Sequence record: PQ362703.1
Strand: one strand, 5' to 3'
DNA length: 64,000 nt
Source of the DNA: Escherichia phage vB_EcoP_PW8
In this document: positions 11,304 to 15,274 of the stretch, piece after piece
Layout of the letters: each line of letters begins with the position of its first letter
Position numbering within the stretch: the first letter of the stretch is position 1
Notes under the pieces: model-generated
Databases searched by the model: none
Seen by the model: only the letters and a program-made list of their open reading frames with translations
What the model was told of the DNA's origin: nothing
Program-made: the position numbers and the translations under genes

Positions 11304-11633
11304 ATGAAAACTTTACTTAAAGGTGTTGCTGTAGCTGCACTGATAGCTTTGGTTCCAAATGCACAGGCAATTAAACCAGAACCAATTCTGGAAGGTGCTC
11401 AGGCTTACCTGGATGACACTCGTGATGCGTTCGGACAAGGATTCTTCATGGGCAGTATGATCTCTTACATCGAGAACACTAATAACTGTGTTCCTGAAGG
11501 TATTAAGTATTCAGTCATTCTGCCTAAGATTGCCAAAGTAGTTATTTACGACTCTGCAATCCTCAAGATGAAGAATACATCTCAAATTGTTGTGTACTCA
11601 GTACACAAGGCATACCCCTGCACCAAATCTTAA
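11304..11633 (+). CDS. secreted/periplasmic protein with signal peptide
   Basis: N-terminal MKTLLKGVAVAALIALVPNAQA signal-peptide-like segment. Confidence 0.55.
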   Translation: MKTLLKGVAVAALIALVPNAQAIKPEPILEGAQAYLDDTRDAFGQGFFMGSMISYIENTNNCVPEGIKYSVILPKIAKVVIYDSAILKMKNTSQIVVYSVHKAYPCTKS

Positions 11634-11667
11634 TCAGTAATTCCATTAGCTTTAGGAGAGTAAGTAA

Positions 11668-11874
11668 ATGGCAAGCATCGACTCCTTGACTGTATGTAAT
11701 TCACGTCAAGCTCGTAACTTTATTATCCGTGCCCTGAAAGCAGGTAACGTACCGTTCCTGACTTCATCACCAGGCATGGGTAAATCTGCAATTATTCGTT
11801 CTATTGCAGAAGAATTTGGTATGAAGCTGATAGACCATCGTCTGTCTACTTCTGCCCCGGAAGACCTTAACTAA
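11668..11874 (+). CDS. MoxR-like AAA+ ATPase, exon 1 (Walker A); ORF stop at 11872 lies inside a putative intron
   Basis: Walker A SSPGMGKS; ORF ends after 68 aa but the ATPase continues in ORF 12743..13588. Confidence 0.6.
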   Translation: MASIDSLTVCNSRQARNFIIRALKAGNVPFLTSSPGMGKSAIIRSIAEEFGMKLIDHRLSTSAPEDLN

Positions 11875-12745
11875 TAGGGCTTTGTGAGGGTGACCTCACA
11901 TCGAAAGCTATCTAAATGGGGAAACTCCTACTATTACAGGGAAACCATGATACACTCTGGTTTCCCAATAGAGGACAATCCCATGCTAAATATTAATGAA
12001 AGTTGGAAAGACATTGTTGGTTATGAAGGTTACTACGAAGTCTCTACGCATGGTCGTGTTAGAAATACCCATACAGGTATGATAAAGAACCAATGTGTAC
12101 AGACTAGCGGCAAGTATCTACAAGTTAGTTTGTGGAAAGGCAACAAAGAAAAAAGATGTTTAGTACATCGCTTAGTTGCTATAGCCTTCATTCCTAACCC
12201 CGAAGACAAGCCTCAAGTAAACCATTTAGACAAAAATGATAAGAACAACCATGTTCAAAATTTGGAATGGGTAACCATATCCGAGAATCATTTACATGCA
12301 TTTGCTAATGGTAGAAAAGGCTCCAAATCCCGACTAGGTGAAAAAACTAGTAAAGCCTCTCAGTATCGATATGTGTACTGGGATACCAAAAGAGCTGTTT
12401 GGAAAGCATCTATAAAGATAGACGGCAAAACAGTAAACATTGGTAGATTCAATACTGACCTAGAAGCAGCTTTAGCCGCTGATGAGGCAATTGATTCCTG
12501 GGGCTGGGATAGAATTAAAAACTTTCAATAATTAAATGCCTAACGACTATCGAAAACACGTAGTGATACGGAAGTGAGTAGAGTAGGGTGCAAGCCAATG
12601 GCACTCGAAAAGATAGCCACCCGGACAGGTAAAGCTGAGGGTGTTGATATAGTCTGGTCTGCGTAGTAATACGTAGCTGTATATGTCCAACTCGCATATA
12701 CGGGTAGAGCCTTGCAAACTCTACTGAACATAACGTAGTGGTTTG
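11869..12745 (+). mobile_element. putative group I intron carrying an HNH homing endonuclease ORF (boundaries approximate)
   Basis: Splits the ATPase between Walker A and Walker B; begins CTT|AACTAATAGGGC like the second intron; 3' part has stem-loops and blocks AACGACTATC, GAGTAGGG, GATATAGTCTGG shared with the intron at 33690. Confidence 0.55.
11983..12531 (+). CDS. intron-encoded HNH homing endonuclease
   Basis: WKDIVGYEGYYEVSTHGRV N-terminal module, HNH block QVNHLDKNDKNNHVQNLEWVT, C-terminal AP2-like block; track ORF 11884 trimmed to Met34 with AGAGGA RBS. Confidence 0.65.
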   Translation: MLNINESWKDIVGYEGYYEVSTHGRVRNTHTGMIKNQCVQTSGKYLQVSLWKGNKEKRCLVHRLVAIAFIPNPEDKPQVNHLDKNDKNNHVQNLEWVTISENHLHAFANGRKGSKSRLGEKTSKASQYRYVYWDTKRAVWKASIKIDGKTVNIGRFNTDLEAALAADEAIDSWGWDRIKNFQ

Positions 12746-13588
12746 CCATTCCGTAATGGTGACCGTGCAGAGTTTATTCCATTCGCTGACTTATTTCCCA
12801 TTGAGGGAGACGAAGTACCCGAAGGTTATAATGGCTGGCTCCTGTTCCTTGATGAGTTCAACTCAGCTAGGAAAGAAGTGGTAGCTGCTGCATACAAACT
12901 GATTCTCGACCGTATGACTGGTCAGAAAAAACTTCATCCCAATGTGATGATTGTTTGTGCTGGTAACAAAGCTACCGACCGTGCAATTGTTAACCCACTA
13001 GGTACTGCAATGCAGTCTCGTGTGGTTCACTTTGAAATGGAACTTAACTTCGACATCTTCGTTGAAGACGTAATGATTCCACAACAATGGGATGAACGTC
13101 TGGTTGCATTTCTACATGCTAACCCTGGCTATCTGCACGACTTCGACCCTGCTCATAAGAACAAAACATTCTGTTGTCCTCGTACCTGGGACTTTGTTAA
13201 CAAAGATCTCAAGAACCAACCAGAAGGTGCATTGCCTGACGAGGATTCCCTGTACTACAGTGGATTTGTTACACCAGGTAAGGCTGTAGAGTTTGTTCAG
13301 TTCACCCAGGTGTACAATCGTATCATTACGATCGAAAAGGTAGTCAAAGACCCATTGGGCTGTGCACTACCAGAAGATAACAACCTGTGCTGGGCTACCG
13401 TTAACCACTTGGCTAACAAAACTACTGAAGAGAACTTCGCTGATGTTCTTCAGTACATTGAACGCTTTAAAACGTTCACTCATAAGATTCTGTACTTCCG
13501 TACAGTAGGCAGAGCATTGCCAGAACTTCAGGCTACCCCTGAATGGCGTAAGGCTGCTGCTAATATCTCTCGTTACATTCACGGATAA
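12743..13588 (+). CDS. MoxR-like AAA+ ATPase, exon 2 (Walker B onward); true exon start about 12746
   Basis: Walker B LLFLDEFNSA; the track's TTG start is probably an artefact of the intron. Confidence 0.6.
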   Translation: MPFRNGDRAEFIPFADLFPIEGDEVPEGYNGWLLFLDEFNSARKEVVAAAYKLILDRMTGQKKLHPNVMIVCAGNKATDRAIVNPLGTAMQSRVVHFEMELNFDIFVEDVMIPQQWDERLVAFLHANPGYLHDFDPAHKNKTFCCPRTWDFVNKDLKNQPEGALPDEDSLYYSGFVTPGKAVEFVQFTQVYNRIITIEKVVKDPLGCALPEDNNLCWATVNHLANKTTEENFADVLQYIERFKTFTHKILYFRTVGRALPELQATPEWRKAAANISRYIHG

Positions 13589-13592
13589 AACA

Positions 13593-14768
13593 ATGAACCA
13601 ATTTCCTCAGCACACTCTTAGTGATGAACAACTCATGCGTGAGTATGACCGTATTCAAGCTCAGGCTTTCCTAGGACGCAGCGCAGCCTTCTTTGGTTCA
13701 TTACTATGTAGTCTTAAATTCTCATGGAAACGTGGGGATTGCCCCACTGCATGTACGGATGGGATAGAACTCCATTTCAATCCTGATTTCTTTATCTGGA
13801 TGTGTCCAGATGCAAGAGAAACAGTATTAATGCACGAACTATGGCATGTGGCATATCTACATGACATCCGTCGTGGAAGCCGTGACCCAGAAGTCTGGAA
13901 CCAGGCATGTGACCACTTCATTAACCTTCAGTTAGAAGAGGATGGTTATAAGTTCACTGGTATTGATGAAGGCATTTGCAAAGACCCCCAATATAAAGGA
14001 TGGGTCGAAGAAGACATCTATGATGACCTGATGAAGAACCCTCAGAAAAGGCAAAAGCCGTCAGGGGGTGCTGGAGCAGGTCTTGCTGGCGACATGAAAT
14101 CCCCCACTTCGGGGCAGTCCCAGGGTGCTGTCGTCAACAACGTAGTACGTGCAATGCAGAGCCAGAAGATGGCAGGTGGAACAATGCCTGGTAAGGGTGC
14201 TGGTCGTATGGAAGAGGTCATTACCCAATTCCTTAAACCAGTGGTTCCCTGGCAGGAAGTTCTGATGAATTTCTTTACCGACATTGATGACACTCATTAT
14301 ACGTGGGCCAGACCTAACCGTCGTTACACTGACATCTATCTACCTTCCCTGGAAGATGATGAAGGGCGATTACGACACTTAGCCTACTTTGAGGATGTAT
14401 CCGGTTCTATTAGTAGTGCTGACTCTCTGCGTTTTAACTCAGAGGTTGCCTACGTTAAGAGCCAGTTCAATCCTAAGAAGATGACCCTAATCACCTTCGA
14501 TGATGTTATCCAAGAAGAGATAGACATCACTGAAGAAGATACTTTTGAGGAGATTAAGATTACTGGTCGTGGTGGTACAAACCTGGAACCAGTACGTGAT
14601 TGGATTATTAAGAATAAGCCAACCGCTGCAATCATATTCTCTGATATGTATGTTCGTCCAATGGAAGAACTACCATTTGATATCCCAATCATCTGGTGTG
14701 TTCTGAATAATCCTAATGCTACCGTACCTTTTGGGGAGGTAGTTCATATCCCTAAAGGAATGAAATAA
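13593..14768 (+). CDS. VWA-domain protein with N-terminal HExxH metallopeptidase-like motif
   Basis: HELWH zincin-like motif; MIDAS-like DVSGSIS; immediately downstream of the MoxR-like ATPase, a known pairing. Confidence 0.65.
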   Translation: MNQFPQHTLSDEQLMREYDRIQAQAFLGRSAAFFGSLLCSLKFSWKRGDCPTACTDGIELHFNPDFFIWMCPDARETVLMHELWHVAYLHDIRRGSRDPEVWNQACDHFINLQLEEDGYKFTGIDEGICKDPQYKGWVEEDIYDDLMKNPQKRQKPSGGAGAGLAGDMKSPTSGQSQGAVVNNVVRAMQSQKMAGGTMPGKGAGRMEEVITQFLKPVVPWQEVLMNFFTDIDDTHYTWARPNRRYTDIYLPSLEDDEGRLRHLAYFEDVSGSISSADSLRFNSEVAYVKSQFNPKKMTLITFDDVIQEEIDITEEDTFEEIKITGRGGTNLEPVRDWIIKNKPTAAIIFSDMYVRPMEELPFDIPIIWCVLNNPNATVPFGEVVHIPKGMK

Positions 14769-15274
14769 TGGTTGTTAATGGTAATTCTCTATATCGTTCA
14801 TCCCAGTTGCTAGATGTTCCTGACCATAAGGTATCCGAGCACGGTGTAAGCTATGGTTTAGGTGAAGCTGGTTATGATATTCGTATCAAACAAGACATTA
14901 CCTTCTATCGCTTATTTGGGTTGATTCCAATGGTGAAAGTCGTTGATGGAAAACAAGTATCACGTCATTTCGGCAAGTTCACGTTGGCTTCAGCAATCGA
15001 GAAATTCAACATGTCCCCATCCTGTGTAGCAATCGTTCACGATAAATCTACCTGGGCAAGACATGCATTATCAGTGTTCAATACCGTAATCGAACCAGGG
15101 TGGAAAGGTTGGCTTACTTTAGAGCTTGTCTATCATGGTCGTAAGAAATTGCATATCCCGGCTGGTTCTGGGATAGCTCAAGTATTATTTCATCTGGTTC
15201 AAGAACCTGCTAATTACAATGGCAAGTACATGAATCAGGAAAACAAACCAGTAGCTGCAAGAAGCAGTAAATAA
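14768..15274 (+). CDS. dCTP deaminase / dUTPase-family protein
   Basis: 168-aa ORF; GYDIR and C-terminal IEPGWKGWLTLEL...GSGIAQVLF resemble dCTP deaminase/dUTPase trimer-family motifs. Confidence 0.6.
   Translation: MVVNGNSLYRSSQLLDVPDHKVSEHGVSYGLGEAGYDIRIKQDITFYRLFGLIPMVKVVDGKQVSRHFGKFTLASAIEKFNMSPSCVAIVHDKSTWARHALSVFNTVIEPGWKGWLTLELVYHGRKKLHIPAGSGIAQVLFHLVQEPANYNGKYMNQENKPVAARSSK

Follow-up and report, generated by a model that had tools for sequence, protein, structure and literature searches.

The DNA analyzed here is a stretch of 64,000 nucleotides (nt) from Escherichia phage vB_EcoP_PW8 (sequence record PQ362703.1; referred to below as the window), and the subject of this report is a pair of adjacent genes located between positions 11668 and 14768. 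One of them specifies an AAA+ ATPase and is interrupted by a predicted group I intron, and the other specifies a 391-amino acid (aa) protein of the DUF2201 family, in which a putative metallopeptidase domain is fused to a domain of the von Willebrand factor A (VWA) type. These proteins are the orthologues of gp24 and gp25 of phage N4. The pair is thus a rediscovery of an already documented module and its proteins add no new kind of system; the new content is modest and consists of the anatomy of an unannotated intron and of comparative residue data. Reasoning by analogy, we give somewhat better than an even chance to the explanation that the two proteins constitute a two-polypeptide, ATP-gated processing machine that would act on a phage or host protein in the middle phase. 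A preliminary description of the same DNA had given these coordinates together with HELWH and DVSGSIS motifs, all of which agree exactly with the listing of open reading frames (ORFs). Its family assignments also held, while the identity of the genes as the long-known core pair gp24/gp25 had escaped it.

The DUF2201 protein is encoded at positions 13593..14768 of the plus strand, as are all the features described below. A search of Pfam bore out the earlier description of a VWA protein with an HExxH metallopeptidase motif, since both DUF2201 domains were matched far above their thresholds: DUF2201_N ("putative metallopeptidase") with 191.4 bits (cut-off 23.2, 3.2e-56) and DUF2201 ("VWA-like") with 116.5 bits (cut-off 26.4, 1e-33). 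These two entries, PF13203 and PF09967, define the family, which the COG database calls "predicted metal-dependent peptidase", and they were found in the same N-to-C order in 18/18 homologues scanned. The N-terminal, putative zincin-like domain comprises residues 17-253 (13641-14351) and includes HELWH at residues 81-85 (13833-13847) and an ACD motif (13905-13913). The C-terminal VWA domain comprises residues 263-386 (14379-14750) and includes DVSGSIS at residues 268-274 (14394-14414). Both the VWA fold and a complete metal ion-dependent adhesion site (MIDAS), consisting of DxSxS (14394-14408), T329, and D351, are supported for this domain, which resembles those of CoxE and NorD.

Comparison of homologues identified the residues under the strongest constraint. 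In the 76 phage-type proteins, which share 48-87% identity, H81, E82, H85, A105, D107, W238, R244, D268, S270, S272, T329, and D351 are invariant. The 67 bacterial proteins, at 26-33% identity, all keep H81, H85, A105, D107, N111, W238, R243, R244, D268, S270, and S272, and nearly all have T329 (66/67), D351 (64/67), and E82 (62/67). Metal binding is therefore more deeply conserved than catalysis, because the His and Asp ligands are universal and the Glu is replaced in 5/67. In the structure model, H81, E82, and H85 lie on the helix formed by residues 72-87 and D107 on the next long helix (99-116), a location at which D107 would be the third metal ligand of the HExxH site. The two domains are joined by a linker (residues 238-251, YTWARPNRRYTDIYLP, 14304-14345) with the motif WxRPNRR, in which R243 is found in at least 90% of the 76 phage homologues. 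The linker is among the parts of the model with the lowest confidence, with predicted local distance difference test (pLDDT) values below 50 at residues 233-242 and 247-256, and may be an interaction or gating segment. Two metagenomic homologues, P0251 (701 aa) and P0247 (519 aa), include inteins whose insertion point is exactly the A105-C106 boundary within the ACD motif (window positions 13905-13910). The evidence for them is a match to Pfam Intein_splicing (4.7e-11), a match to Vint (1.2e-5) that falls just under the 27-bit cut-off, and the junctions ...NFA/C...HN/CDIRINN (slashes mark the boundaries). Insertion at exactly this place suggests that the ACD motif is functionally critical.

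The ATPase gene extends from the start codon at 11668 to the stop at 13588 and, once spliced, specifies 350 aa. Exon 1 (11668..11867) encodes residues 1-66 and two bases of codon L67, includes the Walker A motif SSPGMGKS (11764-11787), and shares 95.5% identity with nt 1-201 of the intron-less ATPase gene of phage ECBP1. Exon 2 (12736..13588) runs from the last base of codon 67 to the stop and encodes the Walker B residues D106-E107 (12851-12856), the sensor 1 residue N144, R149/R162, and an all-helical C-terminal domain. P35, G38, K39, S40, D106, E107, N144, and R162 are invariant in 76 homologues and R149 nearly so. The preliminary description had called this protein MoxR-like. Its own profile matches do not reach that far, because it passes the threshold of the generic Pfam AAA model only (27.1 bits, cut-off 21.2); the label is carried instead by structure comparison, by its homologues, and by the gene pairing. 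An AlphaFold (AF2) model of a 96%-identical intron-less homologue, with a mean pLDDT of 90.8, was closest to dynein, midasin, CbbQ, and NorQ, and the sole match in the sequence and profile searches of PDB was an AAA module of midasin (E ~1e-3). The model has a beta-hairpin at residues 70-81 (strands 70-74 and 77-81), which comes after beta2 (52-58) and a short helix. It also has a strand at residues 131-133, ahead of beta4 (137-144). Judging from the model, the former is the helix-2 insert and the latter the pre-sensor-1 hairpin of the MoxR/dynein/midasin clade. Bacterial ATPases of the same family (hidden Markov model [HMM] E values from 1e-50 to 1e-69) pass the AAA_5 threshold with 25.5 and 29.3 bits, and a Desulfobacter homologue also reaches AAA_3 (MoxR) with 27.1 bits against a threshold of 27. 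The assignment of the ATPase as a divergent member of the MoxR/AAA_5 class is well supported.

The association between the two genes was assessed in a survey with one genome per prokaryotic species, which returned 181 relatives of the DUF2201 protein; 80 loci were kept, 70 of them with enough upstream sequence. A homologue of the ATPase gene was located upstream and on the same strand in 66/70 of these loci, which argues that the pairing is functional and not due to chance. Seventeen loci have the two genes directly adjacent and 44 have a gap of 600-1400 nt. The gap in Acidobacteriaceae TAA 166 (L034, 311-5897) holds a 315-aa gene that overlaps both neighbors and has no Pfam match. Most bacterial versions are three-gene operons, with a gene of ~300 aa between those for the ATPase and the DUF2201 protein, and this intervening gene had no match in Pfam, NCBIfam, or PADLOC. 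For the bacterial neighbors, gap statistics and two hand-checked loci were used, because spurious ORFs in high-GC genomes had compromised the automatic clustering. The TAA 166 locus also has a gene for a WGR and ATP-dependent DNA ligase protein upstream (PADLOC WGR_XIII, 4.9e-30) and a DUF6927 gene downstream. A collection of phage genomes included 806 records with a relative of the ATPase and 699 with a relative of the DUF2201 protein. Both kinds of record came from one set of lineages (N4-like, rV5-like, Asteriusvirus, Wroclawvirus, Atu_ph07, and Bacillus phage G). The genes are adjacent in Atu_ph07 and the N4 group too, and in four phage lineages the pair sits among middle, nucleotide-metabolism, and rII-type genes. 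The DUF2201 family comprises 13,406 representative clusters at 50% identity (E≤1e-3). None of the NCBIfam models matched the ATPase, the DUF2201 protein, or their bacterial homologues, and none of the defense-system models in PADLOC matched either phage protein. The domain identities, the conservation of the motifs, the linkage of the genes, and the anatomy of the intron described below are what these comparisons established directly.

Several aspects of this module were already on record. The N4 annotation describes gp24 and gp25 as "similar to S. coel. protein 1" and "protein 2". A 2009 list of genes conserved in roseophages already included gp24 (AAA ATPase) and gp25 (vWFA), with the function given as "unknown" (PMC2784036), and in 2014 both were counted among the 14 genes that make up the N4-like core and were assigned to the middle transcripts (PMC4193335). 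Papers on N4-like genomes show CDD matches to Vwfa and DUF2201_N (PMC5735904). Iyer et al. described in 2021 a MoxR-vWA-metallopeptidase architecture in jumbo phages, which they read as a chaperone-cochaperone-peptidase system (PMC7824862), and suggested that it takes part in virion assembly and that this involves peptidolytic processing (PMC7824862). The suggestion made in the preliminary description, that of a chaperone or activation module coupled to a protease, is plausible and matches their proposal (PMC7824862).

The mechanism that we favor is modelled on NorQ/NorD, CbbQ/CbbO, RavA/ViaA, and midasin. In it, the ATPase mRNA would first have to lose the 868-nt group I intron, after which gp24 would form a hexameric ring. 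Its partner gp25 would act as a two-domain cofactor composed of an HExxH...D metal site (DUF2201_N, probably zincin-like), the WxRPNRR linker, and the CoxE-like VWA domain with its complete MIDAS. Docking of the VWA domain on the ATPase ring would let the MIDAS metal take hold of an acidic residue in a client protein, hydrolysis of ATP would remodel the client or the cofactor, and the fused HExxH...D domain would then cleave the client or the cofactor itself. The pair, part of the core of every N4-like phage, would be co-transcribed as middle genes. Hexamer formation, docking, proteolysis, and the target are the inferred parts of this model. Indirect support for the model comes from the strict conservation of E82 in the phage clade, the tight gene linkage, and the presence of selfish elements in constrained motifs. 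The latter mark the most constrained sites, namely the intron in EDLSGLP, the inteins at the A105-C106 boundary, and an intron of phage U1G at Walker B, and this too argues indirectly for the processing machine.

A number of results weigh against this explanation. The phage ATPase scores 17.9 bits with AAA_5 (cut-off 22) and 13.2 bits with bpMoxR (cut-off 27) and has no match to AAA_3, and the sub-threshold AAA_5 signal is common to 19/19 homologues scanned. Of the profile searches proposed in the preliminary description, those for the DUF2201 domains gave matches far above threshold, and those for the MoxR-type models gave none above threshold with the phage protein itself. Five of the 67 bacterial DUF2201 proteins have the Glu of HExxH replaced by T, A, or L (HTVMH, HAVMH, HLVMH) and keep both His residues, the Asp of ACD, and the whole MIDAS. 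Four of these (L049, L050, L062, and L065) are of the Desulfobacter type, and the fifth, L043, comes from an Armatimonadetes metagenome-assembled genome. Judged by these substitutions, the sub-clade is probably non-proteolytic and metal-binding, so that some members of the family would not be proteases. The zincin fold of the N-terminal domain was not confirmed by the fold search, in which all listed PDB matches were to the VWA domain and filled both result lists, and sequence and profile searches of PDB returned zero relatives of the DUF2201 protein. In the literature searched, no biochemical or genetic work on gp24/gp25 was found, nor any report of their proteolysis or substrate, and the CRISPRi-ART paper holds no data on the N4 proteins.

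The Glu-replaced proteins are also the starting point for another explanation, which we regard as unlikely yet the least improbable of the alternatives. The pair could be a chaperone without proteolytic activity that serves in maturation or metal handling, in the manner of CoxD/CoxE, NorQ/NorD, or CbbQ/CbbO; here HExxH...D would only bind a metal, structurally or for delivery, and the pair would activate or assemble an enzyme complex of the phage or the host, for example a neighboring enzyme of nucleotide metabolism. H81, H85, and D107 are present in 67/67 distant homologues, five of which have lost E82, the VWA domain resembles those of CoxE and NorD, and the characterized MoxR systems are mostly activators or insertases and not proteases (PMC3893208; PMC7159879). 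Furthermore, in N4-like phages and in Asteriusvirus, the pair has genes for dCTP deaminase or thymidylate synthase as neighbors. However, the presence of E82 in 76/76 phage and 62/67 bacterial homologues argues that catalysis is retained in the phage clade, and there is no evident metalloenzyme client. Rather less probable is a module for virion assembly or maturation that would chaperone structural proteins and process them proteolytically. This was the proposal of Iyer et al. in 2021 for the same architecture (PMC7824862), and the MoxR ATPase p618 of Acidianus two-tailed virus (ATV) has been implicated in tail formation (PMC7824862; PMC3893208). The core set of all N4-like phages includes the pair together with structural genes (PMC4193335), but the pair lies in a middle-gene block, where it is transcribed with replication and nucleotide-metabolism genes, away from the late structural cluster. 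It is found among early-type genes in rV5-like, Asteriusvirus, and Wroclawvirus phages, and it was not among the virion proteins identified by mass spectrometry in RPP1/RLP1 (PMC4193335).

A protease for host takeover or counter-defense, which would cleave a host protein such as a defense or stress factor in the middle phase, seems to us slightly more doubtful again. Its patchy spread over unrelated lytic lineages (N4-like, rV5-like, and several jumbo groups) and its middle-phase expression are what such a role would predict, and bacterial homologues adjoin WGR-domain genes that match a candidate-defense model of PADLOC (the WGR_XIII match mentioned above). On the other hand, strict conservation as a core gene in N4-like phages whose hosts differ widely (PMC4193335) is easier to reconcile with a client intrinsic to the phage than with a variable host target, and neither of the two proteins matches any PADLOC model. 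As for the adjacency of the genes being fortuitous, and HExxH with it, the motif is short and arises by chance in many proteins. Nonetheless, the pairing in 66/70 bacterial loci and across phage families, the conservation of the motif over 143 homologues (with the Glu in 62/67 of the bacterial set), and the Pfam match of 3e-56 refute this reading, to which we assign next to no probability. Returning to the processing machine, a bolder version of it can be put forward as a speculation, and one that we consider improbable to the same degree as the role in virion assembly. The DUF2201 protein and the ATPase would represent a hitherto uncharacterized class of split, MIDAS-coupled, AAA+-gated zinc protease, widespread in bacteria and lytic phages (>13,000 clusters at 50% identity), in which the ring would engage the WxRPNRR linker to switch on the peptidase and, in N4-like phages, an essential middle-phase client would be processed.

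The closest known counterpart is the N4 gp24/gp25 pair itself, which has the same order, domain content, and neighbors (genes for RNAP2 and a Hoc-like protein upstream, dCTP deaminase downstream), shares ~60% protein identity with that of PW8, and is without the intron. The same three-domain architecture is present in the MoxR-vWA pair of jumbo phage group 2.2, where the metallopeptidase is N-terminal on the vWA protein (PMC7824862), and homologues in Asteriusvirus and other jumbo phages share 23-30% identity (tblastn). PW8, however, is a small 72-kb podovirus and not a jumbo myovirus, and in N4-like phages the pair is a universal core. CoxD/CoxE, NorQ/NorD, and CbbQ/CbbO also consist of MoxR ATPases and VWA cofactors, but these cofactors are without HExxH and activate metalloenzymes or Rubisco. 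What sets the phage ATPase apart from CoxD, NorQ, and CbbQ is its C-terminal helical domain, which is long and distinct, and its failure to reach the AAA_3 threshold. Midasin (Rea1/Mdn1) has an AAA_5 ring with a MIDAS domain that grips an acidic residue of its client (PMC7159879); it differs in that one giant polypeptide, of eukaryotic origin, contains all six AAA modules, and in that it lacks a peptidase. The likeness to FtsH, an AAA+ module fused to an HExxH zincin, is a functional analogy only (ATP-driven unfolding and a zinc peptidase), since FtsH is one polypeptide with a classical-clade AAA and an M41 peptidase, lacks VWA and MIDAS, and no homology to it was detected.

The interruption of the ATPase gene, which the preliminary description had attributed to an intron, was defined by comparison with ECBP1. 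The ORF list of the region has four relevant entries: a 68-aa ORF with Walker A (11668-11874), a 215-aa ORF in the gap, a 281-aa ORF (12743-13588), and the 391-aa ORF of the DUF2201 protein (13593-14768). The intron-less ECBP1 gene is a single ORF (1053 nt, 350 aa) that aligns to 11668-11868 and 12739-13588, with 868 nt between them that are missing from ECBP1, and an HNH endonuclease is encoded inside this insert. Excision of 11868-12735, the segment absent exactly from intron-less alleles, produces a 1053-nt ORF colinear with that of ECBP1 and restores the invariant EDLSGLP. The insertion point lies within this motif, between EDL and SGLP, exactly where the helix-2 insert begins. Among 19 aligned homologues, the IDHRLSTSAPEDL(S/T/N)GLP motif has a fixed length, with D66 and G69 invariant. 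Four candidate splice junctions were compared. The one chosen, ...GACCU/UAAC...ACG/UAGUGG..., has U preceding the 5′ splice site, ends the intron with G, and yields EDLSGLP. The junction CT/...G/TGG was rejected because it produces EDLGLP and drops a residue from a motif of invariant length, AACT/.../GTTTG because it produces EDLNCLP and loses the invariant G69, and CTTAA/.../TGG, which produces EDLNGLP, because an A and not a U precedes the 5′ splice site.

The insert has further characteristics of group I introns. The predicted elements are a P1 hairpin at 11860-11883, a P2 hairpin at 11884-11899, a ribozyme core at ~12532-12735, and the terminal G at 12735. Folding of 11858-11905 produced P1 with a U11867·G11877 wobble at the 5′ splice site and P2 directly after it (-16.6 kcal/mol, z=-3.1), and inspection by eye showed a possible P10 of 3 bp between the first bases of exon 2 (UAG) and CUA in the P1 loop. 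The Rfam model RF00028 matched 12387-12676 with 25.6 bits (E=0.0015), which is under its gathering score of 50; in this alignment P7, P8, and P9 have high posterior probability, including GAUAUAGUC, and the 5′ part lies inside the endonuclease ORF. This ORF (11947..12531) encodes a predicted HNH homing endonuclease with Pfam matches to NUMOD4 (1.1e-13), HNH_3 (4.7e-8), and AP2 (8.6e-7) and a match to PHROG 59 (HNH endonuclease, 1e-44); gp63 of Shigella phage pSb-1 is annotated at the same place. An alternative start is the ATG at 11983, preceded by a GAGGA Shine-Dalgarno sequence. Taken together, there is good in silico evidence that the insert is a group I intron, and splicing is predicted from its sequence. 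Like other phage group I introns with HNH endonucleases, such as the td intron of the N4-like Vibrio phage pVa5 (PMC5746245), it has a U before the 5′ splice site, a terminal G, an internal HNH ORF, and a highly conserved motif as its insertion point. It differs in that its host gene is the gp24 ATPase and its Rfam score is below the gathering threshold.

The intron is 98.7% identical to the insert of pSb-1, the only one among 58 matching GenBank records that shares it; N4 and most Gamaleyaviruses are without it. Sequences associated with introns in Gamaleyavirus U1G, in Dickeya phage JA29, and in the terminase genes of Pseudomonas KIL phages match its 3′ core (12532-12680) with 72-78% identity. 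The matching cores in other phages adjoin or lie inside homing-endonuclease and terminase genes, and that of U1G is annotated as "Phage intron". The exon flanks (11850-11870 and 12736-12750) have five substitutions in 21 nt when compared with ECBP1, all of them synonymous (GAT->GAC, the serine codons TCT->AGT, CTA->TTG), as would be expected beside a homing-endonuclease target and consistent either with a recoded target site or with co-conversion. Truncated ATPase clusters from metagenomes (P0141, P0145, P0174) would fit split gene calls of intron-bearing alleles, a hint that the intron is not rare. In the same ATPase gene of phage U1G (L087, 1504-3438), an intron of 882 nt that contains HNH follows codon 105, immediately ahead of the DE of Walker B. 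Its 5′ end (AACTAACGGGGCTTCATGAGAG...) and the exon bases CCTT upstream of it resemble those of the PW8 intron, and this likeness at different positions points to two related introns at two sites of one ATPase gene.

The source phage is a Gamaleyavirus (N4-like coliphage, Schitoviridae) and shares 94.6% DNA identity with pSb-1 over the full length of bases 11600-14800. About 55 other Gamaleyavirus genomes share 92-94% identity over 73% of these bases, with one block of the query absent there. The ATPase and DUF2201 proteins of PW8 are 95-99% identical to deposited phage proteins. The local gene order is that of N4 and is shared with ECBP1: RNAP2, a Hoc-like immunoglobulin (Ig) protein, small ORFs, the ATPase, the DUF2201 protein, dCTP deaminase, and ThyX. 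The spacing from the ATPase stop to the DUF2201 start is 4 nt, and the TAA of the DUF2201 gene (14766-14768) shares one base with the ATG (14768-14770) that starts the dCTP deaminase gene. Translational coupling of the three genes is probable. Just upstream of the ATPase gene is a 109-aa ORF (11304-11633), the N-terminus of which (MKTLLKGVAVAALIALVPNAQA) resembles a signal peptide; the ORF falls in a PHROG of unknown function. The label "Tai4 protein" (type VI secretion system amidase immunity) that it has in some relatives is unsupported, as it has no Pfam match.

Several deposited records describe these genes incorrectly. The DUF2201 protein matches PHROG 1314 (2.3e-144), which is labelled "HNH endonuclease", and Pfam shows no HNH domain in it. 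The wrong name has spread to N4 gp25 (L003, 6165-7307) and to dozens of phage records, and some say "homing endonuclease" or "anti-sigma factor". The pSb-1 record (L002, 3069-6170) breaks up the intron-containing ATPase gene under the names "hypothetical", "HNH endonuclease", and "ATPase" and gives two coding sequences for the DUF2201 gene. In that of ECBP1 (L001, 4363-5301) the start of the DUF2201 gene is placed 79 codons too late.

Few core modules of the Schitoviridae lack an assigned role; the gp24/gp25 pair is among them, and it belongs to a very large family without a characterized member. The comparative data point to residues worth mutating, and the window provides a clean example of a group I intron left unannotated in the ATPase gene. 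If demonstrated, the function of the pair would annotate thousands of bacterial and phage genes and would add a protease-coupled variant to the MoxR-VWA theme.

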